A stretch of DNA of 32,000 nucleotides, taken from NCBI GenBank assembly GCA_030429505.1, contig JAUIFI010000001.1, positions 720,001 to 752,000 of the forward strand, in the 5' to 3' direction. Positions within the stretch are counted from its first letter, which is position 1; the number at the start of each line of letters is the position of its first letter. The position numbers were made by a program, and so were the translations under genes. The stretch is from Candidatus Saccharimonadota bacterium (lineage in GTDB: Bacteria > Patescibacteriota > Gracilibacteria > UBA4473). This document shows, piece after piece, positions 9,865 to 21,124 of the stretch. The notes under the pieces were generated by a model that worked only from the letters and a program-made list of their open reading frames with translations, had not been told where the DNA came from and made no database searches.

Positions 9865-10362
9865 ATGAAAAACAATACATCCACTCCCGCTACAAAAAAA
9901 GGCTTCAGCCTTCTTGAGATGCTCTTGGTTGTTGCCGCCATCGGAATTTTAGCAGGAATCGTTATCCTCGCTCTCAATCCTGGAAAACAACTCGCTGATA
10001 CCAGAAACGCTCAACGAAAAGCTGACGTTAATACTATTCTCAACGCTGTGTATCAATATGCCATTGATAGCAATACTGGAGCTCTTCCAAGCACTATCCT
10101 TGCCGCTGGAGACTGCTCAACAAACACAAATCTGATCTGTACCACAGGAGGAGACTGTAACGGTGGCACAAACGCCGAAGGACACAATCTCGTTGACCTT
10201 GCTGTACTAACCAACAGCGGAACATATCTCGTAAATATGCCCACAGATCCTACTACAACCACTACCAACGGAACCGGATATAGCATCTTTCAAGACGCTA
10301 ATAGCCGAGTGACCGTCTGTGCACCGAATGCTGAAGGAGGAACCATCAGCGCTAGTCGATAA
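9865..10362 (+). CDS. Type IV pilin (probable major pilin)
   Basis: N-terminus KKG|FSLLEMLLVVAAIGILAGIV is a canonical prepilin signal. It has four Cys in the C-terminal half, its own upstream intergenic region, and a strong terminator downstream. Confidence 0.8.
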   Translation: MKNNTSTPATKKGFSLLEMLLVVAAIGILAGIVILALNPGKQLADTRNAQRKADVNTILNAVYQYAIDSNTGALPSTILAAGDCSTNTNLICTTGGDCNGGTNAEGHNLVDLAVLTNSGTYLVNMPTDPTTTTTNGTGYSIFQDANSRVTVCAPNAEGGTISASR

Positions 10363-12388: not shown

Positions 12389-12414
12389 AAGCAAAAAATA
12401 CAAAAACAAAAAAG

Positions 12415-12444
12415 CCAAGATGAATATATGTCTTGGTTTTTTTT
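12415..12444. terminator. Bidirectional rho-independent terminator
   Basis: Stem CCAAGA / TCTTGG with a 10-nt loop. T8 lies downstream on the + strand and an A-run upstream, which gives a T-run on the - strand. Confidence 0.7.
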
Positions 12445-12445
12445 A

Positions 12446-12628
12446 TTGGGGAAGGTGGCAAGAAGCTCTTACCCCGCTAGAGCGGGGACGAGGTTCCGTA
12501 ATAGTCGTCCCAAAAAATCGGGACTCCTTTACTTCAACGAACTCATACGAGTTCAATTCATGCCATTCTGCTATGCAGAAATATAAAAAACTCGCTGTAC
12601 CACAAGGGCACATCGATTTTTTTATTCC
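12446..12628. other. Structured, relatively GC-rich non-coding segment (possible ncRNA of unknown class)
   Basis: Series of perfect short hairpins: CCCCGC-TAGA-GCGGGG, GGGACGA-N13-TCGTCCC, GAACTC-ATAC-GAGTTC, TTCTGC-TAT-GCAGAA. There is no credible ORF; track ORF 12420-12866 runs through the terminator and hairpins. Confidence 0.3.
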
Positions 12629-12858
12629 TTGGTGGAGCAGGCGTGACACATTTCCAACTTTTTTTGGATTTTGTTCGAGAAATCAATCTGTATGCGAAAG
12701 AACTCTTCGAATTACAAATTTCCATGCGAAGATTGGAAAAGATTTTGCAGGCTCCTTCAAAACAATATTGTTCGAGAAGCTTCATTTACTGAGGCTTGAA
12801 TTCTTGAGGTGTTTGAATAAGCTAACGGCATGTATAACTTTATATTGTTTACCTAGTG

Positions 12859-13023
12859 ATGGGTGAACAGAACAAACCTCTTTATTCCAAACAAGAGGTT
12901 CAAGAAGTTCGCAGTCTTACGAGGATTGTCAAAGACATAGACCTCAAAGACGAGCGACGAAGGCTTAATGCCAAGAGGATGATTAACGCCTCAGGAGAAA
13001 CGGTTTACTTCAATGAGTGGTAA
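12859..13023 (+). CDS. Possible small ORF (54 aa, MGEQNKPLYSKQEVQEVRSLTRIVKDIDLKDERRRLNAKRMINASGETVYFNEW)
   Basis: Found by manual translation; it is below the ORF-track size cutoff. It ends 18 nt before a terminator hairpin. No obvious RBS and no recognised family. Confidence 0.3.
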   Translation: MGEQNKPLYSKQEVQEVRSLTRIVKDIDLKDERRRLNAKRMINASGETVYFNEW

Positions 13024-13040
13024 ATACTTTCTTCCATTAA

Positions 13041-13075
13041 AAAATCTCTCAATAGTCTTGTTGGGAGATTTTTTA
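13041..13075. terminator. Bidirectional terminator between the small ORF (+) and the 222-aa gene (-)
   Basis: Stem AATCTCTC / GGGAGATT (one G-U pair) with a 12-nt loop, flanked by A4 upstream and T-run downstream. Confidence 0.6.
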
Positions 13076-13083
13076 CAAAAGGA

Positions 13084-13752
13084 TTATATTTTTTCCAAGG
13101 TTAATCCTGAACATTGAGGAAAGAATATTCTTATATTTTCCTTACAATCATCAGGAAATTTAACCTCTTTAAGGCTGAATTGAAGAATTTTGTCTGCATT
13201 TCCTGATTCATGTCCCAAACATCTCCATTCGCAAGCTAGTAGTTCTTTTTTTGTGGTTTCTTGTGTTACTTTAATTTTTGTTTTTCCTTCGAAAGACTTA
13301 ACTAAAAGCTTCCCAGAAACCATAGAGAAGTTGATTTCAATATTTTCGCTGACAGCAGAATTTAAAATGACATCTAGGCGCTCTATTTCATCGTCAGGAA
13401 TCTTTGGAAGTTTCTCTAGGTGTTCCACCCACATTACAAAAAAGTTATTGAAGGCTGTGCGGTCTACAGAAACTCTTTTGTCGTTCGTCTTTGGTTTCGA
13501 TTCATCTTCTCCTGATTCAAGGATGAAACGATTGTTTTTAGTATCTTTTATGTGTACTCGTCCAGTTTTATGGAAAGAAATATGGTCAATCTCCACGTTA
13601 TTAGTTTTTCCACCGACCTTTGATGCTTGTACTTGAGAAGGAGTGAATAAAATATCACCAGTAAATCTTTGGACGGTAATCATTCCAATATTAAAAAAAT
13701 AAGATGAATACTTAATGACGATTCTATAGCTGACATTGTCTTGTGAATTCAT
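13084..13752 (-). CDS. Hypothetical protein (orphan, 222 aa), co-transcribed downstream of the LexA-like repressor
   Basis: A long ORF that starts 1 nt after the stop of the upstream gene. No motif recognised. Confidence 0.65.
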   Translation of the reverse strand: MNSQDNVSYRIVIKYSSYFFNIGMITVQRFTGDILFTPSQVQASKVGGKTNNVEIDHISFHKTGRVHIKDTKNNRFILESGEDESKPKTNDKRVSVDRTAFNNFFVMWVEHLEKLPKIPDDEIERLDVILNSAVSENIEINFSMVSGKLLVKSFEGKTKIKVTQETTKKELLACEWRCLGHESGNADKILQFSLKEVKFPDDCKENIRIFFPQCSGLTLEKI

Positions 13753-13753
13753 T

Positions 13754-14437
13754 TTAAAATTTCGGCTTTTTAATAACTTGTTTTATCGTCCCGTTCACCA
13801 TAAAGGCATCATCTTCGTGGATGTATATGGGGGGGAGTTCAGTTTTAGATTCAGAGAGCAAAACAATTTGATTATTTTCGGTATCCCTGACGAATTTTTT
13901 AATATTTGCTCCTCCGTCAATTACAGAGAGAACATAATCACCGTTTTGAGGGTTTCTTTCCTCAGAATCAATAATGACGTAATCACCATCTTCAATTGTG
14001 TCACCTCCCACATCGGCATCATTCATTGAATCGCCCGTAGCTTTTAAGACGAATAATGATTTTTTTGGGATTACTTCTAATAAATTTTTGGAGATTTTTA
14101 AAAATCCTTCCAAATTTTCTTCCGCAATAGCGAGTGGGGAACCACAGCAAGCTTTTCCTAATATAGGAATTGAAATGAATGCATTACTTTCATCTTCTGT
14201 ATTGATTCCTACCCGCTCTAAAACATTTTCTTTGTGGTTTATTCGAATCAGCCCTCTTTTTTCTAGCTGTAGAACATGATTTTTTATTTGTTGAGGATGA
14301 GGATTATCTTCTCCAATAGCTTTTCCAATGTCTCGCAATTTTTTCGAAAGTTTCCCACCGTTATCGTCTATAGCCTGAAGAATTTTGCTCTGAGTTTTAT
14401 GCATTATTTTATTTTTAAGACAGCTGAATTCTATCAT
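13754..14437 (-). CDS. LexA/CI-type repressor: N-terminal winged-helix DNA-binding domain + C-terminal S24 self-cleaving peptidase
   Basis: The N-terminus (SKILQAIDDNGGKLS...IKNHVLQLEKRGLIRI) resembles the LexA DNA-binding domain. GKACC-GSPLAIAEENLEG aligns with the LexA/UmuD cleavage-site region. The Ser nucleophile is in ATGDSMND and the Lys in GGANIKKF. Confidence 0.85.
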   Translation of the reverse strand: MIEFSCLKNKIMHKTQSKILQAIDDNGGKLSKKLRDIGKAIGEDNPHPQQIKNHVLQLEKRGLIRINHKENVLERVGINTEDESNAFISIPILGKACCGSPLAIAEENLEGFLKISKNLLEVIPKKSLFVLKATGDSMNDADVGGDTIEDGDYVIIDSEERNPQNGDYVLSVIDGGANIKKFVRDTENNQIVLLSESKTELPPIYIHEDDAFMVNGTIKQVIKKPKF

Positions 14438-14438
14438 G

Positions 14439-14491
14439 TGTCACAAATGAAATCAAGTCGATTTGACAAATGTGACAAAATCCTATAGACT
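14439..14491. promoter_or_regulatory. Divergent promoter/operator region: inverted heptamers, repeated ACAAA motifs and a consensus -35
   Basis: Inverted heptamers TGTCACA (14439-14445) / TGTGACA (14471-14477). Inner inverted pair AAATC (14450-14454) / GATTT (14460-14464). (C/G)ACAAA(T/A) occurs three times, at 14442, 14465 and 14474. TTGACA at 14463-14468 is followed 15-17 nt later by TATAGA/TAGACT (14484-14491). Confidence 0.45.
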
Positions 14492-14516
14492 CCGCTCGTA
14501 TTCTTAATTTACTCAG

Positions 14517-14744
14517 ATGGGGTACAAGCAGACATGGGTTTCTCCCAATGACGGTAACGGCTGGAAAGTTCATCACCCAGAAAATGAACGAGCATCTCGT
14601 GTTTTCGACACAAAACAAGATGCTGTGGACTGGGGAAGACAACATTCTAAAAACGAACATACTGAATTTATAGTTCAAAAAGGAGATGGAGAAATTCAGT
14701 TTAAAGACTCTCATGGGAATGACCCTCGTAACATCAAAGGATGA
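14517..14744 (+). CDS. DUF2188-family small protein
   Basis: The 75-aa sequence VSPNDGNGWKVHHPENERASRVFDTKQDAVDWGRQHSKNEHTEFIVQKGDGEIQFKDSHGNDP matches my recollection of the DUF2188 pattern (W.V......S..F.T..eA...a.......e..IH..DG.I......GNDP). Confidence 0.75.
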   Translation: MGYKQTWVSPNDGNGWKVHHPENERASRVFDTKQDAVDWGRQHSKNEHTEFIVQKGDGEIQFKDSHGNDPRNIKG

Positions 14745-17700
14745 CACAATTTCACGGACTTTTTATCGGTATTGACCGCTACAAATCTCCAAAAATTAAC
14801 TGTTTGGGATTTGCAAAAAGAGATGCAATGGCTCTGCATGCACTTTTTAATGACAACCTAGGGGGTGAGTGTGTATTCATGGCAGATGAAGAAGCAACAA
14901 GGTCTGCAATTGAGAACGAACTGCAAAAATTACAGGGGTGTTCCGAAGACGATGTTGTCGTCATCACATTCTCGGGACATGGGTCACCTACTCACGAATT
15001 AGTAACTCATGACACCGTTCCCGAAAATCTTGAACAAACTGGTATTCCTCTTTCACTTTTGACTGAATGGTTTTCAAAAATTCCTGCAAAAAAACTAATT
15101 TTTCTTTTGGATTGTTGTTTTTCTGGTGGAATGGGGGCAAAGGTTCTTCAGGTCGATGCAATCCCTCGAGATTTGGAATCAGAAGAATCTTTATTGCAGA
15201 AAATGTCGGGAGAAGGAAGGGTGATTCTAACTGCTGCCAATGCGAAAGAACCTGCATGGGAAATTAGTAGATTCAAACATGGTCTTCTGACGCACCATTT
15301 CATAGAAGCTTTATTGGGGAAGTTGGACGCACAGAAAGCAGGAAAGATTTCACTTTATAAACTCTTGGAGCAGGTTGTGCAGAGTGTAGTTGATTCTGCC
15401 AAATCAATCAGAAAAGAACAACATCCAACACTTAGAGGAACGATTGATGAGGAAGTGCTATTCCCTGTCTTTGAAATTAAAGAACATTACAAAGCTGCAT
15501 TTCCTGAAATATGTCGCCCTAAAGTAACAGAGAAAGTTTCGAGTTTAAAAGTCTATGGGTTTCCTGAAGAAGTACTTCAAGCATGGCAAGGAGCTATCCC
15601 TAGTCTGAATGAGCTTCAAATTGCGGCAATAAATGATTACGGAATTTTTGAAGGAAATCATTTGCTTGTTTCGGCTCCCACGTCCTCTGGTAAAACAATG
15701 ATTGGAGAATTAGGGGCGCTGAAAGGGATTACTCAAGGACAAAAAGCAATATTTCTATTTCCACTTAAAGCCTTGGTAAATGACAAACACAGGTATTTCA
15801 ACACTGTATATGCTCCTTTTAATGTAAAAACAATTCGGGCAACGGGAGATTCAACCGATGACATTCCCGACCTTATTCAAGGACAATATGACATCTGCTT
15901 GATGACCTATGAGAAATTTACTGCGTTAGTGCTCAATGTTCCCCACATACTTGGACAGGTGGGAACAGTTGTGATTGATGAGGTACAAATGATTGCTGAC
16001 ACATCGAGAGGAGTTAACTTGGAATTTATCTTAACACTTCTGAAGGTAAAAAGGCTTGAAGGGATTGAACCCCAATTAATAGCTCTTTCGGCTGTAATCG
16101 GAGACACAAATGGATTGGAAAATTGGCTAGGAGCATCTCTGCTGAAGAAAATGGAAAGACCCGTAGATTTACATGAAGGAATCATAAATTCTAGTGGAAC
16201 ATTCCGTTCCATAAATCCGAAAACAAATGATGAAAACATAACTCAAAATTATATTCTTCCTGAAATGAGAAGCCAAAGTGGAAGCAGTCAAAACTATATC
16301 ATCCCTTTGACTAGGAAATTAGTGGCTGATGGAAAACAAGTTATCGTTTTTAGAGCTACTCGCGGGGAAGCTCGAGGATGTGCTAAATATCTTGCACAAA
16401 GTTTGGGACTTCCTCCGGCTAATGAAGAAATAGCAGGACTTCCTACGGGAGACGTATCGATGGCTTCTAATGATTTGAGAAATTGTTTGTTGGGGGGAGT
16501 TGCTTTTCATATCTCAGATTTAGACAGAGATGAAAGACTTGTTGTGGAAGAAGGGTTTCGAAAACCAGACAGTAAAATTCGGGTAATAGTCGCTACTACC
16601 ACACTTGCAATGGGAGTTAATACTCCTGCAGAGGCAGTCATAATAACCGGATTAGAACATCCAGGAAACCCTCCAAAACCTTACTTCATTGCCGAATATA
16701 AAAATATGGTAGGACGAGCTGGACGGTTAGGCTTTTCAGAGGTAGGAGAATCTTTTCTATTGGCTTTAAATGGACATCAAGAGTCTCATTATTGGGGACA
16801 TTATGTTTTAGGCGCTCCTGAAGACATTGAATCTCAATTCTTAAGTCGTGGAACAGACTTACGTTCTTTGATTATTAGAGTTCTTATAGCTGGCAGCAAA
16901 ACGAAAGACCATTTTTTAACAGCAGATGAAATTGTTGATTTCTTGGAAAATAGTTTTGGAGCTTTTCAACAAGCTCGTTTTGATGATTCTTGGACATGGA
17001 ATCGAGATTCCTTATTTCAAGCCATTCACAATCTAGAAGAGAATGAATTAATAGAGAAGGTCAAAGATGGTTATAGTTTAACAGAATTAGGTTGGTTGAC
17101 CGGACAAGGCGGAGTGGAAGTAGAATCAATAGTAAGGATTATCAATGCATTGAAAGGAATGAATGCAACTTCAATCAATGAGATGACATTAATCACAGCC
17201 ACTCAAATGACCGTAGAATTGGATGCTCTTTATTTCCCCTTAAATAAAAAAAGCACACAGAAAGAACCCATTTTTTGGAGAAATGGACTACTTCAAAGAA
17301 GCGTGCCATCTACACTAATATCTTTCTTGCAACGAGGGATTGACCAAATTGGAGCCATTGTCAGGGCTAAAAAAGCAGTAGCTTGTTTATTATGGATGAG
17401 TGAAACACCCCTCAATGAAATAGAAAAAACCATGACCCAATTTGGCGGAGGATTGAATGGGGCAGCAGGCTCTGTAAGGCAGGTTGCTTCGCGAACTCAT
17501 GATTTATTGCCCACTGTTATGAGGATTGCAGAAATTCTTCATTCAGAATTGGACATGGGAGAAAGAGGAAAAACATTATTGGCTCGTTTAGAGGTAGGAG
17601 TCCCTAATTCTTTAGGAGAACTTGCGATTCATTTTGGTAGTCGCCTAACAAGGAATGATTATTTCTCGCTTATGCAGAAAGGTTTAAACACGATGGAGGC

Positions 17701-17857
17701 AATTATTAATGCCCCAGATGAACAGTTATTATCTTGCTTCGGAGGAAGTGATGTCGAAAGGAAACTTGCGTCAGTAAGGGATGCTATTCAAAACTATGGA
17801 GAAGAAAAAATGGAACGAGAATCCGTAGGATTGCTATTACCTAAATATGAAAGTTAA
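14741..17857 (+). CDS. Fusion protein: N-terminal caspase-like (peptidase C14-type) domain + Ski2/Hel308/Lhr-type SF2 helicase
   Basis: Caspase dyad contexts VVVITFSGHG (His80) and LIFLLDCCFSGG (Cys125/126). Helicase motifs: I SAPTSSGKT, Ia FPLKALVNDK, II VIDEVQ, III LSAV, V ATTTLAMGVNTPA, VI YKNMVGRAGRLG, followed by a long C-terminal extension. The ATG overlaps the upstream stop (ATGA). Confidence 0.9.
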   Translation: MTQFHGLFIGIDRYKSPKINCLGFAKRDAMALHALFNDNLGGECVFMADEEATRSAIENELQKLQGCSEDDVVVITFSGHGSPTHELVTHDTVPENLEQTGIPLSLLTEWFSKIPAKKLIFLLDCCFSGGMGAKVLQVDAIPRDLESEESLLQKMSGEGRVILTAANAKEPAWEISRFKHGLLTHHFIEALLGKLDAQKAGKISLYKLLEQVVQSVVDSAKSIRKEQHPTLRGTIDEEVLFPVFEIKEHYKAAFPEICRPKVTEKVSSLKVYGFPEEVLQAWQGAIPSLNELQIAAINDYGIFEGNHLLVSAPTSSGKTMIGELGALKGITQGQKAIFLFPLKALVNDKHRYFNTVYAPFNVKTIRATGDSTDDIPDLIQGQYDICLMTYEKFTALVLNVPHILGQVGTVVIDEVQMIADTSRGVNLEFILTLLKVKRLEGIEPQLIALSAVIGDTNGLENWLGASLLKKMERPVDLHEGIINSSGTFRSINPKTNDENITQNYILPEMRSQSGSSQNYIIPLTRKLVADGKQVIVFRATRGEARGCAKYLAQSLGLPPANEEIAGLPTGDVSMASNDLRNCLLGGVAFHISDLDRDERLVVEEGFRKPDSKIRVIVATTTLAMGVNTPAEAVIITGLEHPGNPPKPYFIAEYKNMVGRAGRLGFSEVGESFLLALNGHQESHYWGHYVLGAPEDIESQFLSRGTDLRSLIIRVLIAGSKTKDHFLTADEIVDFLENSFGAFQQARFDDSWTWNRDSLFQAIHNLEENELIEKVKDGYSLTELGWLTGQGGVEVESIVRIINALKGMNATSINEMTLITATQMTVELDALYFPLNKKSTQKEPIFWRNGLLQRSVPSTLISFLQRGIDQIGAIVRAKKAVACLLWMSETPLNEIEKTMTQFGGGLNGAAGSVRQVASRTHDLLPTVMRIAEILHSELDMGERGKTLLARLEVGVPNSLGELAIHFGSRLTRNDYFSLMQKGLNTMEAIINAPDEQLLSCFGGSDVERKLASVRDAIQNYGEEKMERESVGLLLPKYES

Positions 17858-18302
17858 AAATTCCACTTGTAATCACTTGGATTTTTCGCAGCTTCCGGCT
17901 GCGGAGGGGATGCGTTTTGAAAAAGCAATATTCGCTTGGTTACTGTCTTTACCTAGAAAATTACGTCCTCAAAACCTTAAGACCCAAAAGGACTTTTCCA
18001 AGTCGTACAATATTTCAGAAAATAGCCTTTCAACATGGAAAAAAGAAAAGGATTTTCAACGACTTAGAACGAGTTTGATGAAGAATAATTTTATAGACAG
18101 GACGCCAGACGTTATTGAGAATCTTTACCGAGCGGCTACTGCAGACCCATTGACGGGGAAAAGTCCGGTTCCAGCTATTCGCTTATGGTTGGAATTCATT
18201 GAAGATTGGAGATTGAACCAACCAATAGAATCTGAACCCGAAGAAAAAGTAATTTTCCAATTTGCGACTACGCGCTCACCTTTCATTAATCCAGAGGACT
18301 AG
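17847..18302 (+). CDS. HTH-domain protein (resembles phage terminase-small-subunit / phBC6A51-type helix-turn-helix)
   Basis: LKTQKDFSKSYNISENSLSTWKKEKDFQRL fits the TQ.EFA..lgvs..Tl..Wk.d..F pattern. The start overlaps the helicase gene by 11 nt. Confidence 0.6.
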   Translation: MKVKNSTCNHLDFSQLPAAEGMRFEKAIFAWLLSLPRKLRPQNLKTQKDFSKSYNISENSLSTWKKEKDFQRLRTSLMKNNFIDRTPDVIENLYRAATADPLTGKSPVPAIRLWLEFIEDWRLNQPIESEPEEKVIFQFATTRSPFINPED

Positions 18303-18338
18303 TTTCTGCATCAGAAACTTACTTTTCTGAGGCAGAAA
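18301..18338. promoter_or_regulatory. Two tandem palindromes sharing the arm TTTCTG/CAGAAA (possible terminator hairpins or protein-binding sites)
   Basis: AGTTTCTG-CAT-CAGAAACT (18301-18319) and TTTCTG-AGG-CAGAAA (18324-18338). Their centres are 21 bp apart and no T-run follows. Confidence 0.4.
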
Positions 18339-18555
18339 TTGACTTTAGGGGCAAAAGTTTTAAGATTTTTGTGCTACTCAAATTTCTTTATTTATTCGTC
18401 TCCAATGACTTTTTACGTTTCAACGTAGAGAATCGGTTGTGGTTACTAGAGCTAAAAGATGGGGCAATTCACCGTCCATTTGGCTTTAGTTTCCGCTTGG
18501 AGACAAAAGAAATTTGGGTAGCACGGTTGAGTTGCCCCTTCTTTATATATTTCGA

Positions 18556-19158
18556 ATGAATAAAACTGCAGAAAAATTCGCCAAAGGGTTTGTAATAGCA
18601 TTCGCCCTTTTCATCTTTGTGTCCGTTGTGATTTTAAATTCCTCTCCCTCCGGTCAGAACCATCCTACCAGCATAAAACAAAAAACTCCTTCAGTAGAGG
18701 AGGTCATTTTGTCGACACCGGAAGAAGAAAAATCTGCACTGGAAGACTTCTACAAAAACTTTCTCCAAATTACAGAAGAAGCTGATTCTGCACATGCTGA
18801 ATCTCTTAGTATTGCAAAACAAGGGAATCTTATAGCGAGTTATGCAATGTTTCAAAACCACTCACTTCCAGCCTTCAAAAAAGTTCAAACTGAACTTCAA
18901 AATATGAAAATTCCCAATATTTCAAACGAGGAGAACAAAAGACAACTAGAAGAAGGTGTGAAAGAGGTTTTACAAGCTTATTCCTTACAAATTCAAGGAA
19001 TAAATCAAATCTTGAAGGGAGTAGATGAAAATAAGAATTCACTTATCCTTAAAGGATTCAATCAATTTGAAGAAAGTCAGGAATTTATTATTTCAGGTGC
19101 TGGGAAAATTACATGGATTTTGAACCTTGAATATGGAATTGAAGTTTCGACTGAGTAA
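18556..19158 (+). CDS. Membrane-anchored hypothetical protein
   Basis: Same frame as track ORF 18514-19158. I prefer the start MNKTAEKF at 18556. It has an N-terminal TM helix (FVIAFALFIFVSVVILN) followed by a helical, E/Q-rich region. Confidence 0.6.
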   Translation: MNKTAEKFAKGFVIAFALFIFVSVVILNSSPSGQNHPTSIKQKTPSVEEVILSTPEEEKSALEDFYKNFLQITEEADSAHAESLSIAKQGNLIASYAMFQNHSLPAFKKVQTELQNMKIPNISNEENKRQLEEGVKEVLQAYSLQIQGINQILKGVDENKNSLILKGFNQFEESQEFIISGAGKITWILNLEYGIEVSTE

Positions 19159-19197
19159 CTGGGAATTTCAAGGAATCGCGCTAGAATAAAAATCGAA

Positions 19198-20796
19198 ATG
19201 AGTTACGAAACTCCAATATGTGAACGTTATGTTATATACGCTCGAAGGTCATCAGATGATGGTTCGGGAAAACAATTGAAATCTGTTCCCGACCAGATTC
19301 AGTTTTGCTTAGAATTAGCAGAAAAAGAAGGCATTGAAATAAACAAAGAATCAGACATATTCACAGAATCAGCTTCAGCAAAAAAAGCGAATCAAAGAGC
19401 TGTTTTTACAAAACTTTTAAAACTCATAAGACAAGGAGATGTCGACGGAATTATTTGTTGGCATCCTGACCGTCTGTCGAGAAATATGTTAGAAGCCGGA
19501 GAAATTATTGATTTACTCGATGATGGTTCCATTAAGGATTTAAAATTCTGTACACACCATTTTGAGAATACAGCGTCAGGAAAAATGATGCTGGGAATTC
19601 TCTTTTCTATTTCAAAAGAATACAGCGACAGTCTGAGTGAGAGAATCAATCGAGGAGTTCAGACAAACTTGGAGCAGGGAAAATCAGCAGGAACTCCAAA
19701 ATGGGGTTATAACCGAATTGAAGACGGCTACTATGTTCCCTCAAAAAACTTTTCTTTTATACGGAAAGCTTGGGAAATGCGACTGAATGGGAAAACTTAC
19801 GAAGAAATTGTTCGGTGGTTGAAGCGTGTGGACTGTTTTCGAATGACAAAAGAAAGTAAACGTAAAATTGTTATTGACAGGTCATCGCTCACTCGTCTAT
19901 TCAAAGACCCCATTTATTACGGGGTTTTGGTTCAAACAGGAAAACCCGTCGACTTGCGCGAAATAGACCAAGAATTTGAGCCAATGATTTCGGAAGAGGA
20001 ATTCCGAAGAGTTCAAACTTTGGCGCGAAGAAAGAATAAGCGAAATACAAAGCAAAATTATCCTTTTCGAGATGGAATTATTAAGCATGTTTCAGGAGAA
20101 GTTTGTTTTCCCGAAGCTTCCAAAAGTAGCAATGGGAAGAATTATCTTTACATCACTTGCCGAAAGAATCTCAAGAAAGCTGACCGAATGCGTGCGAGAG
20201 TTTTTCTTGCGGAAGTGTCTAAATTCTTGAAGGAAAATTTCAAAAAGCCAAATCCAAAAGATTATAAAAAATATTTGGAAGTTATGAACGAAGCTATTCA
20301 AGAAGACATGAATGACCGAACAAAACAGAGAAAAGCTTTAATGAATCAGAAAATAAAACAGCAGCAGGAATTGGAGGATTTGATTATGAGTATGTTTAAA
20401 AGAGAGCAGAGAGGGAATGTTTCTGAATCTGAAATTTCTACTTATGAAAAAGAAAAATTCAAACTTGAAGAGAGCCTCAAGGCTTTAGATTCAGACATTA
20501 AAAAAATCGAGAAGAACACACTTCTCGAAGCATTTAGTTATGAAGAATTTTCCAACTTTCTCAAAGATGCAGTCGGGTACTGGGAAAAAGCGGATTCTGA
20601 ACAGAAACACGAATTAGTGAAATTTTTGTTTTCCAACATAGTCGTTGGACACGGAAAAGTGCATAAACTAGAGCCAAAACGACTCATAGCTAAACTTTTT
20701 GTTGGATTTGGTGGAGGTGGCGAGAATCGAACTCGCGTCCAAAGAGGAAACATACCTTCGTCTACGGAACCTAGTTCAGCTGTTTACCTCCTCTGA
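19198..20796 (+). CDS. Large serine recombinase (island 2 integrase)
   Basis: The N-terminus YVIYARRSSDDGSGKQ...SVPDQ carries the catalytic Ser, followed by GIICWHPDRLSRN. A recombinase domain and a K/E-rich coiled coil follow. The last 88 nt (20709-20796) overlap ssrA in antisense. Confidence 0.9.
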   Translation: MSYETPICERYVIYARRSSDDGSGKQLKSVPDQIQFCLELAEKEGIEINKESDIFTESASAKKANQRAVFTKLLKLIRQGDVDGIICWHPDRLSRNMLEAGEIIDLLDDGSIKDLKFCTHHFENTASGKMMLGILFSISKEYSDSLSERINRGVQTNLEQGKSAGTPKWGYNRIEDGYYVPSKNFSFIRKAWEMRLNGKTYEEIVRWLKRVDCFRMTKESKRKIVIDRSSLTRLFKDPIYYGVLVQTGKPVDLREIDQEFEPMISEEEFRRVQTLARRKNKRNTKQNYPFRDGIIKHVSGEVCFPEASKSSNGKNYLYITCRKNLKKADRMRARVFLAEVSKFLKENFKKPNPKDYKKYLEVMNEAIQEDMNDRTKQRKALMNQKIKQQQELEDLIMSMFKREQRGNVSESEISTYEKEKFKLEESLKALDSDIKKIEKNTLLEAFSYEEFSNFLKDAVGYWEKADSEQKHELVKFLFSNIVVGHGKVHKLEPKRLIAKLFVGFGGGGENRTRVQRGNIPSSTEPSSAVYLL

Positions 20797-21124
20797 TCAA
20801 AACTGAACGAAATACAGAAAAGGAGAGCCAAAAATGTCCTCCATAATCGGCAACACCATGAAGTAAGATTCAAATATAAGGAAAATAACTCAGAATCATC
20901 AGCTATAATCCACTGACGAGTAAAAACTCAAGCCAGATTTAATTTAGGCTGCGTAAGCGTAAGCAGGTTTAGCCAAAGAAGCCAAAAGAGCTTCAGCTTG
21001 AGCAACAGCTTTCTTAGCAAAAGATTTTGCATTTATAATTGAATGGTGGATCTACCGGCGACCATACACGCCGTGTTCGCAGAAAATACATTTCTCAATC
21101 TCCCTGTCAAAACCTGACACCCCC
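20709..21124 (-). ncRNA. ssrA: tmRNA (ssrA)
   Basis: The 5' end GGGGGUGUCAGGUUUUGACAGGGA resembles the conserved GGGGCUGAUUCUGGAUUCGACGGGA. The 3' end GGACGCGAGUUCGAUUCUCGCCACCUCCACCA forms a T arm plus an acceptor that pairs with the 5' end, including G3-U. An internal Ala-rich reading frame ends ...AKPAYAYAA-UAA (21030 down to 20944). Confidence 0.9.

Follow-up and report, generated by a model that had tools for sequence, protein, structure and literature searches.

A caspase-fold protease and a Hel308-type helicase in one bacterial polypeptide: a candidate single-gene defence factor on an integrative element

Two groups of described bacterial immune systems stand closest to the gene reported here. 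In Hachiman, a Ski2/Hel308-like superfamily 2 (SF2) helicase is coupled to a destructive effector: HamB, which is functionally Hel308-like, restrains the HamA nuclease on intact DNA and releases it on DNA damage (PMC12278908), and in HamMAB, HamB gates a trypsin-like protease (PMC12799240). In type IV Thoeris, Canu (CanABC) and the modules linked to EACC1, MBL or hydrolase proteins, the executing arm has a caspase fold; CanA has been reported as MALT1-like (PMC12799240), and a caspase-like protease without a dedicated effector protects E. coli (PMC12642450). Fusions of the two kinds of activity have been catalogued, with helicase domains counted in 12 of 671 metacaspases in a 2012 survey (PMC3501461) and DEAD/Helicase_C domains in 3 of 473 cyanobacterial orthocaspases in a 2021 survey (PMC8283722); no function was assigned in either survey, and neither recognised the helicase partner as a complete Hel308. 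Here we describe a fusion of this kind in a 32,000-nucleotide stretch of a Candidatus Saccharimonadota genome (GenBank assembly GCA_030429505.1, contig JAUIFI010000001.1, positions 720,001 to 752,000; hereafter the window, meaning the whole stretch analysed). As predicted from its sequence, the gene encodes one polypeptide that combines a metacaspase-like protease with a complete Hel308-type helicase, both with intact active sites. With moderate confidence, we read it as a self-contained single-gene defence or abortive-infection factor, carried as cargo by an integrative element.

The fusion gene was found in a six-frame list of open reading frames (ORFs) at 14741-17857 on the + strand and encodes 1038 amino acids. 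A sequence-only reading of the window had proposed three adjacent + strand ORFs, at 14517-14744, 14741-17857 and 17847-18302, as a cassette, and these coordinates proved correct. Codon positions read from the sequence also place every motif which that reading quoted for the fusion at the residue it gave: H80 is encoded by CAT at 14978-14980, C125/C126 by TGT TGT at 15113-15118, K318 by the codon at 15692-15694 and DEVQ by 15977-15988. The two halves of the protein are as follows.

14741..15475, + strand: caspase/metacaspase-fold protease domain (fusion residues 1-245), with H80 and C126 and the candidate S1-pocket acids D28 and D124
15560..17779, + strand: Hel308-type SF2 helicase (fusion residues 274-1013), with RecA1, RecA2, winged-helix, ratchet and HhH domains

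The full-length fusion was modelled with AlphaFold2, with 31 homologues as input, and the model had a mean predicted local distance difference test score (pLDDT) of 84.6 and a predicted template modelling score (pTM) of 0.74. Model evaluation consisted of confidence scores, Foldseek and alignments. Family scans, fold matches and retained active sites all agree with the earlier assignment of a caspase joined to a Ski2/Hel308-type helicase.

The caspase half carries the dyad contexts SGHG and DxCxSG, as in metacaspases. PF00656 (Peptidase_C14) is precomputed on nearly all homologues of the fusion, the PADLOC "caspase" model matches its N-terminus (E = 1e-14), and NCBIfam NF047832, which describes the EACC1-associated caspase subfamily, matches this half at E = 3e-24 with 85 bits, below its cut-off of 140. 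Residues 1-262 were also modelled on their own (pLDDT 85.2, pTM 0.88), and when this model was compared with the PDB by Foldseek, the top 50 matches were all of caspase fold. The best of these was the MALT1 paracaspase (E = 3e-10) and the best target TM score was 0.70, with other matches to GSU0716, to caspases-3, -7 and -8, and to metacaspases 4, 9 and MCA2. In this model H80 lies directly after strand 72-78 and C126 after strand 118-124. In the profile-to-PDB alignment with TbMCA2 (4afr) and AtMC4 (6w8s), H80 falls on the catalytic His, and C126, not C125, falls on the catalytic Cys (C213 of TbMCA2, C139 of AtMC4). Since the domain models as a caspase fold with an aligned dyad, it is assigned as a caspase-fold protease of the metacaspase/orthocaspase type. 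The structural check that the sequence-only reading had proposed for this domain thus left the assignment standing; of the dyad it had named, His80 with Cys125/126, the alignment retains H80 and C126 and discards C125.

Residues D28 and D124 of the fusion align with Asp residues of MCA2 in GCCND and DCxHSG contexts, which we take to be the Asp residues lining the metacaspase S1 pocket. Because both aligned residues are acidic, the caspase half probably cleaves after Arg or Lys. Prokaryotic metacaspases and orthocaspases (C14B) share with the fusion the fold, the two dyad contexts and acidic residues that align with the putative S1-pocket positions, whereas the usual fusion partners of orthocaspases are WD40, TPR, AAA_16 or FGE-sulfatase domains and not helicases. 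A profile search with the caspase domain returned fragments of the same fusion family alone.

The helicase half matches Pfam DEAD (E = 2e-23) and Helicase_C (E = 5e-9), and fusion residues 274-1013 align with positions 8-704 of the 739 in NCBIfam PRK02362, a Hel308-type model (E = 7e-89). SF2 motifs I, Ia, II, III, V and VI are intact and readable in the fusion sequence; the full motif set claimed earlier is borne out by the sequence, by both Pfam matches and by the invariance of K318, D413, E414, R659 and R662 in the family. A PDB search with the family profile gave 205-230 bits for Hjm/Hel308 structures compared with 102 bits for HamB (8vx9). Foldseek of the fusion model likewise placed it on Hjm/Hel308 (2zj8, E = 5e-42), with target TM scores of 0.82-0.88 over 711-776 aligned columns, and the next matches of this half were the Pol-theta helicase domain and Brr2. 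Because the helicase superimposes on whole Hjm/Hel308 chains, the tail of about 350 amino acids corresponds to the winged-helix, ratchet and HhH domains, in keeping with the earlier placement of this tail where Hel308 carries its winged-helix and ratchet domains.

Archaeal Hel308/Hjm and the Pol-theta helicase thus match the fusion in all SF2 motifs and in the winged-helix, ratchet and HhH domains. In contrast to archaeal Hel308, the fusion family is bacterial, carries a 245-amino-acid caspase domain, and is mobile and patchy rather than a core repair gene, and motif II of the fusion clade is DExQ. The Hel308 NCBIfam models score the protein at 299 and 226 bits against equivalog cut-offs of 887 and 1200; the possibility that the helicase half is an archaeal Hel308 orthologue was rejected on these scores, which point instead to a distinct bacterial branch of the Hel308 family. 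Hel308 has been described as absent from bacteria (PMC12278908), and at the level of modelled fold and domain architecture the fusion family contradicts that description.

The last residues of the fusion, 1031-1038 (17831-17854), form a tail of the type PILPxYE that is predicted to be disordered (pLDDT < 50). In 31 homologues, conservation of P1031, P1034 and Y1036 reaches at least 90%. The tail is not found in more distant clades, so that a family-wide conserved C-terminal tail was rejected in favour of one conserved within the fusion's own clade alone. It is possibly a short linear docking motif.

In order to place the fusion in a family, a word-indexed search of 5.8 billion proteins was conducted and yielded 1581 matches at E <= 1e-5. 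The best 120 of the 1581 are essentially all full-length (984-1075 amino acids), 54-59% identical to the fusion and annotated just as "helicase"; in metagenomes the full-length homologues number more than 120. A scan of about 185,000 species, each represented by a single genome, gave relatives in 274 of them, distributed over more than 15 phyla. Hosts include Patescibacteria (Buchananbacteria, Magasanikiibacteriota), Elusimicrobiota, Omnitrophota, Planctomycetota, Acidobacteriota, Chloroflexota, Cyanobacteria (Nostoc), Bacteroidota (Chryseobacterium, Pedobacter, Sphingobacterium), Akkermansia, Alphaproteobacteria (Bradyrhizobium, Afipia, Sphingomonas), Myxococcus and Actinomycetota (Streptomyces, Nocardia). 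Identity between relatives from different phyla is about 47-60%, which indicates horizontal spread. Full-length copies were detected on 17 plasmids and fall into two clades, with identities of 50-53% and 36-40%; no phage among those searched carries the fusion, and none of 5,426 E. coli genomes gave a match in a nucleotide search with a gammaproteobacterial homologue.

When the helicase part was used by itself in an exhaustive HMMER search, almost every one of the closest full-length relatives, to a lower limit of about 29% identity, proved to have the caspase domain, and the search gave 59 full-length family clusters at 50% identity. These 59 cluster sequences, 27-46% identical overall to the fusion of the window, together with that fusion made up a conservation set of 60. 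H80, C126 and D28 of the caspase half and K318, D413, E414, T619, R659 and R662 of the helicase half are kept in 60/60 sequences and D124 in 59/60, while C125 is kept in 48/60. Position Q416 is H in 19/60, and the Q in VIDEVQ, which the sequence-only reading had pointed out in place of the usual H, is therefore a clade variant of DExH. Pairwise distances of the caspase and helicase halves co-vary (r = 0.77, Mantel 0/999) with equal mean rates. This co-variation at equal rates points to one ancient fusion whose halves have co-diverged, with both activities under continuous selection.

The same conservation bears on whether the fusion might be a host housekeeping DNA-repair helicase with the caspase domain as an inactive scaffold, an explanation that is close to refuted. 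The helicase core does resemble repair helicases; against this stand the restriction to the 274 species, the inter-phylum identity typical of horizontal transfer, the location in an acquired element of foreign GC skew (see below), and the retention of H80, C126 and D28 in every family sequence and of D124 in all except one. With the dyad and the candidate S1 residues all but invariant, the caspase domain is unlikely to be a dead scaffold.

One relative shows that the N-terminal half can differ. P0122 (L088 1274-4336, 1020 amino acids) has the same helicase at 49% identity, with an unrelated N-terminal domain of about 230 amino acids instead of the caspase. This domain had no Pfam match even at E = 10 and gave 0.2% probability in hhalign against the caspase profile; by eye, its motifs IGIDIKDFS and EGGDGF recall what we take to be those of class III nucleotidyl cyclases. 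The next ring of relatives comprises Hel308-like proteins of about 900 amino acids without an N-terminal domain, with C-terminal HATPase_c, sigma-54 AAA+ or Trans_reg_C domains. The helicase chassis thus appears to be modular, P0122 being the one example in which another domain stands in place of the caspase. Such exchange of N-terminal modules, with the helicase conserved, is characteristic of sensor-effector immune proteins.

In a distant subclade (P0192, P0194, P0195, P0197, P0204, P0209, P0210 and P0246), the last 16-20 residues resemble a beta-sliding-clamp-binding motif of the QxxLF type, e.g. QRDLFADL, QLRLFDDF, QLALFEEI, QHDLFASI and QLLLDLL. Tails of this kind occur in 9/60 sequences compared with 2.4% of internal windows (binomial p = 1e-5, for sequences that are related and not independent), and members of this subclade may be recruited to the replisome.

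The genes that surround the fusion elsewhere were surveyed in a sample of 80 retrieved homologous loci and in a wider set of 115 non-redundant neighbour genes from 50 loci. Among 73 non-redundant immediate neighbours, Pfam identified type III Res/RE_endonuc, BsuBI/PstI, Eco57I, HsdM, Mrr, ApeA-HEPN and HEPN families as well as TIR (twice), ThsB-TIR, HamA, Fic, Tle1-like, IS110 and AlpA. In the wider set the commonest families were tyrosine integrase (6), CHAT (4), N6_Mtase (3) and ResIII/DEAD (3), followed by Resolvase, ISL3 transposase, TIR, Fic, Schlafen-AlbA2 and caspase with two each, and PADLOC adds restriction-modification (R-M) methylases, SngC, HamB, E1-E2 and SoFic. Type I, II and III R-M genes all occur among the immediate or near neighbours. 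Plasmid copies in RefSeq/PLSDB adjoin TIR-TIR-caspase genes, PLD + AAA, CHAT-TPR, NB-ARC + TIR and a GNAT/DUF1778 toxin-antitoxin pair. The context of the homologues, which the sequence-only reading had named as a check, is thus one of defence and mobile-element genes and not of replication or transfer modules. In other bacteria with small genomes the fusion comes straight after a type III R-M operon: at L086/L087 (1575-9093), where in L086 (a genome of about 1 Mb) it shares 4 nt with Res, and at L002 (5368-11093), where 14 nt separate the two.

No single family stands out as a partner. The gene directly upstream of the fusion may be an XRE-type HTH gene, an Mrr-like nuclease, a type III Res subunit, a gene for a protein of about 200 amino acids, or none, and the downstream neighbours are equally varied across loci. 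No family is frequent enough to be a partner, the top one occurring 6 times among the 115 neighbours of 50 loci, and none recurs beyond one lineage. In 19 loci, mostly from Bradyrhizobiaceae (L012-L023, L031-L033, L036, L045, L059 and L060), DUF2158 (78 amino acids, about 240 nt) lies 8-9 nt upstream of the fusion, with ThiF/E1-E2-type genes upstream on the same element. As judged from these gene orders, the fusion behaves as an autonomous gene with no conserved partner.

These surveys allow the fusion to be compared with named systems. PADLOC v2 contains no model for it, the best results being partial matches of HamB, PDC-M23B and SngC, so that no named system matches the fusion in the PADLOC check which the sequence-only reading had suggested; PDC-M23B, an untested PADLOC candidate, matches the helicase core at E = 1e-28 with partial coverage alone. 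A full-text literature search found catalogue mentions of a caspase-helicase fusion alone and no functional study. The sequence-only reading had put forward a candidate undescribed module, which holds with respect to named systems and functional studies but is overstated for the architecture itself, catalogued in 2012 and 2021.

Hachiman is the closest of the helicase systems, with its Ski2/Hel308-like helicase coupled to a destructive effector, its defence-island lifestyle, and HamB models as PADLOC's best matches to the fusion. In Hachiman, however, the partner is HamA (DUF1837), which is matched by none of the window neighbours and elsewhere by 1/40 non-redundant downstream neighbours. The PADLOC match of HamB to the fusion (116 bits) covers the helicase core alone, and the profile comparison favours Hel308 (230 bits) over HamB (102). 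Because HamA is lacking and the helicase is nearer Hel308 than HamB, membership in Hachiman was rejected. HamB models match 2/115 of the wider neighbours, which fits separate Hachiman systems lying adjacent. HamMAB, made up of a trypsin-HamA protein, HamB and an MBL pro-nuclease, differs further in that its trypsin-like domain is on a separate subunit, whereas here a caspase-fold protease is fused in cis, and there is no MBL pro-nuclease in the window.

With the bacterial caspase-like immune proteases (type IV Thoeris, Canu CanABC and those linked to EACC1, MBL or hydrolases) the fusion shares a caspase-fold executing arm, and CanA reportedly resembles MALT1, the best structural match of the fusion's N-terminal domain. 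It differs in its putative sensor, a DNA helicase rather than a TIR signal, a STAND NTPase or an Ig/TPR module. Pfam, PADLOC and NCBIfam scans of the window neighbours found no TIR, MBL, EACC1 or Pepco family; since the partner genes are lacking, the fusion was rejected as an EACC1, MBL, Canu or type IV Thoeris module. Elsewhere TIR genes account for 2/40 and 2/115 neighbours, and a separate TIR-TIR-caspase set adjoins the fusion on plasmid pBAL398.3.

Within the window, the fusion lies in a tightly packed unit with the following further features.

14441..14491, + strand: divergent control region, with a promoter-like TTGACA-17-TAGACT at 14463-14491 (10/12 matches in a promoter scan)
14517..14744, + strand: DUF2188 gene, 75 amino acids (PF09954, E = 1e-17), absent beside all 80 homologues
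17847..18302, + strand: HTH gene, 151 amino acids (HTH_Tnp_1_2, E = 2e-4, below cut-off), with an alternative start at 17910
18301..18319, + strand: terminator-like hairpin from a pattern scan (8-bp stem and T-rich tail; a consensus match alone), which ends the DUF2188-fusion-HTH unit

Both gene overlaps and the DUF2188 label given in the sequence-only reading are correct. The stop of DUF2188 overlaps the start of the fusion in the ATGA at 14741-14744, which is read directly in the sequence, and the ATG of the HTH gene at 17847 precedes the fusion's TAA (17855-17857), for an overlap of 11 nt (17847-17857). The three genes probably form one local transcript, judging from their arrangement between the promoter-like site and the terminator-like hairpin. 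The divergent intergenic region between DUF2188 and a repressor gene on the opposite strand measures 79 nt, and in it an imperfect inverted repeat, GTCACA at 14441-14446 and TGTGAC at 14472-14477, overlaps the promoter-like site as a candidate operator; this evidence is weak because the repeat was read by eye and was not reported by the automatic repeat finder.

That the three genes make up a functional module, as the sequence-only reading had it, did not survive comparison with other loci. DUF2188, the HTH gene and the other genes of the window's element considered (the LexA-like repressor gene and the genes for proteins of 222 and 214 amino acids, all listed below) were found in 0/80 loci when all ORFs were searched by BLASTP (E < 1e-3) and phmmer (E < 0.01), and the annotated contigs of the three closest retrievable relatives contain none of the fusion's window neighbour genes. 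A conserved DUF2188-fusion-HTH trio was accordingly rejected, and an obligate, translationally coupled three-component system (e.g. sensor or antitoxin, effector and regulator) is very unlikely. The overlaps are real, the promoter-like site and the terminator-like hairpin bracket the three genes, and the DUF2188 protein matches PDC-S16, an untested single-gene candidate in PADLOC, end to end (E = 3e-26), all of which would suit such a system. Yet DUF2188, which also matches the phage family phrog_3220 (E = 4e-22), does not travel with the fusion and may be independent cargo rather than its partner. The HTH protein looks like element backbone, with weak matches to the transposase HTH family and, at E = 5e-4, to PHROG DNA-binding and small-terminase families; by these matches it is probably a regulator, a recombination-directionality factor or a small-terminase-like protein. 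Its start is also uncertain: no Shine-Dalgarno sequence precedes ATG 17847, whereas a GC-rich hairpin with a 12-bp stem (17882-17908), located 25 nt past the end of the fusion, is followed by GGAGG and an in-frame ATG at 17910. This second ATG may be the real start of the HTH gene (130 amino acids), and the hairpin could attenuate read-through. The tight coupling of the three genes is local packaging inside the element of the window, and DUF2188 and HTH are local neighbours of the fusion, not obligate partners.

The upstream slot raises a further alternative, in which the caspase would be an initiator protease and a latent effector would occupy a variable adjacent position in the style of MBL, Pepco, EACC1 or Canu systems, here DUF2188 and elsewhere DUF2158 or others. 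We regard this as unlikely. In its favour, the nearest curated caspase subfamily is the EACC1-associated NF047832, EACC1 being a small protein encoded upstream of its caspase (PMC12642450), and many loci have a short coupled upstream ORF, with DUF2158 in its 19 loci filling the slot that DUF2188 holds in the window. The NF047832 score, however, is below its cut-off, DUF2188 has no EACC1, Pepco or MBL match and is unrelated to DUF2158, the upstream gene is often a Res subunit, an Mrr-like nuclease, an XRE regulator or none, and none of the dedicated latent effector families (EACC1, Pepco, MBL, alpha/beta-hydrolase) recurs among the 115 neighbours of 50 loci.

The unit is carried by an element of about 8.3 kb (about 12447-20726) in the 3' end of the tmRNA gene, and the fusion gene makes up 38% of it. 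The remaining features of the element are listed here.

12447..12464, strand not assigned: candidate left attachment site, where the 18 nt that end the tmRNA gene recur in degenerate form
13084..13752, - strand: gene for a 222-amino-acid protein, just downstream of and co-directional with the repressor gene; element backbone
13754..14437, - strand: LexA/CI-type S24 self-cleaving repressor (Peptidase_S24, E = 1e-19), divergent from the cassette, with its start possibly at Met 14404
18514..19158, + strand: gene for a 214-amino-acid protein with a hydrophobic N-terminal segment; element backbone
19198..20796, + strand: large serine recombinase (integrase; Resolvase E = 2e-24, Recombinase E = 3e-11, XisF/Ccr-like NCBIfam matches)
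20709..21124, - strand: tmRNA (ssrA) gene, the integration target (ARAGORN; Rfam RF00023, 97.5 bits, E = 1e-37)

The candidate right attachment site is the 3'-terminal 18 nt of the tmRNA gene (20709-20726), and the copy at 12447-12464 matches it at 15/18 positions in the same orientation, a score reached by 1/2000 shuffles. This copy was found by a targeted scan with the 18-nt tmRNA end; long direct repeats were also sought as attachment sites, and the repeat finder, blastn-short and MAFFT gave chance-level matches alone. A bidirectional terminator hairpin (12413-12445) lies directly before the candidate left site, and the GC skew switches at 12447-12464, being +0.08 inside the element and -0.23 and -0.29 in the flanks. 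The last 88 nt of the serine recombinase ORF are inside the tmRNA gene, whose tag ends in AYAYAA. The repressor has GDSM and NIKKF motifs, matches the PHROG transcriptional repressor family (E = 4e-18), and matches TIGR00498 (lexA) at E = 6e-24, below cut-off. No match to the 222-amino-acid protein was found in Pfam, NCBIfam or PADLOC and a faint one at most in PHROG, and the 214-amino-acid protein had no significant match in these four collections. The earlier reading was therefore right to describe the cassette as carried by a small integrative element and as divergent from a LexA/CI-type repressor, a description upheld by the tmRNA gene, the recombinase, the 15/18 repeat, the GC skew and the Peptidase_S24 match. 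The element at L086 also contains an HTH_17 excisionase-like gene and a large serine recombinase and is a second small serine-recombinase element with the fusion. Among the host genes of the window, the one at 9865-10362 codes for a protein that resembles type IV pilins and has GFSLLEMLLVVAAIGILAGIV as its N-terminal motif; with the 1.02-Mb contig and the AYAYAA end of the tmRNA tag, it points to a bacterium with a small genome.

Carriage by such an element suggests another role, in which the fusion serves the mobile element itself as a replication, recombination or fork-restart helicase and the caspase processes a regulator of the element or host, such as a repressor or a replication protein. 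The closest structures, Hel308, Hjm and Pol-theta, act at stalled forks and in end joining, the operon is divergent from a CI/LexA-type repressor, conjugative plasmids carry copies, and one subclade has the clamp-binding-like QxxLF tail. We nonetheless judge this role improbable: the neighbours elsewhere are defence genes and integrases rather than replication or transfer modules, many copies are chromosomal and phages were not found to carry the fusion, and a strictly conserved caspase dyad is, to our knowledge, without precedent in replication helicases.

In total, a defence role for the fusion is likely, and none of the computational tests by which the sequence-only reading had proposed to refute that role did so. 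Its wider claim of a defence or abortive-infection module is credible as a single-gene system, while the three-gene module is unsupported. Several points weigh against our reading. Named systems were searched with PADLOC v2, a version from 2023, and the evidence from neighbour families consists of descriptive counts. In many loci a short ORF (DUF2188, DUF2158, XRE-HTH or Mrr-like) is tightly coupled to the fusion on its upstream side, and there could be a partner slot after all. Hel308 in its canonical form works in repair and replication restart, so that a DNA-maintenance role of the fusion is conceivable, and the position of the gene, divergent from a CI-like repressor, is the slot usual for early, replication or excision genes. 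Finally, activation by DNA-dependent release or oligomerisation, as set out next, is proposed by pure analogy.

As a single-gene defence factor, the fusion might act in the following way. The Hel308 module would patrol DNA and load where it is aberrant, as at 3' tails and forks or on phage DNA that is damaged or replicating, a step modelled on archaeal Hel308 and on HamB of Hachiman. By the same analogies, DNA binding and ATP turnover would shift the conformation of the fusion or gather several copies on the same DNA, and this shift or clustering could then free or dimerise the caspase domains, a step proposed because caspases are activated by induced proximity. The active caspase would cleave host or phage proteins, stopping growth or phage replication; the absence of a neighbouring gene for a dedicated pro-effector makes direct action on targets of the cell or the virus the most likely course. 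As the operon is divergent from a LexA/CI-type repressor, transcription of the fusion in the window's element is probably also induced by DNA damage or by induction of the element. More tentatively, and with somewhat less than even confidence, we propose that a bacterial Hel308-type helicase is used here not for repair but as the nucleic-acid sensor of a one-polypeptide caspase immune receptor, which would convert aberrant or foreign DNA into proteolysis and cell suicide. If true, this would be the simplest known pathway from helicase sensor to caspase, and it would parallel in prokaryotes the way in which animal innate immunity links helicase receptors to caspases.

The family has consequences at several levels. 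A complete Hel308-type helicase is, by these models, widespread in bacteria of more than 15 phyla, which corrects the stated distribution of Hel308. Hundreds of genomes label family members merely "DEAD/DEAH box helicase", and naming the protease half would improve both annotation and defence catalogues. If the fusion is a defence system, it joins the helicase-based sensing of genome integrity known from Hachiman with the caspase executioners of type IV Thoeris, Canu, gasdermin and EACC1 modules, two themes of bacterial immunity that have until now been investigated apart, and as a single chain without a partner gene it would be an unusually tractable model for how DNA sensing leads to protease activation. 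On the same reading, the small serine-recombinase elements that carry the fusion in genomes of about 1 Mb show how bacteria with reduced genomes acquire immunity.

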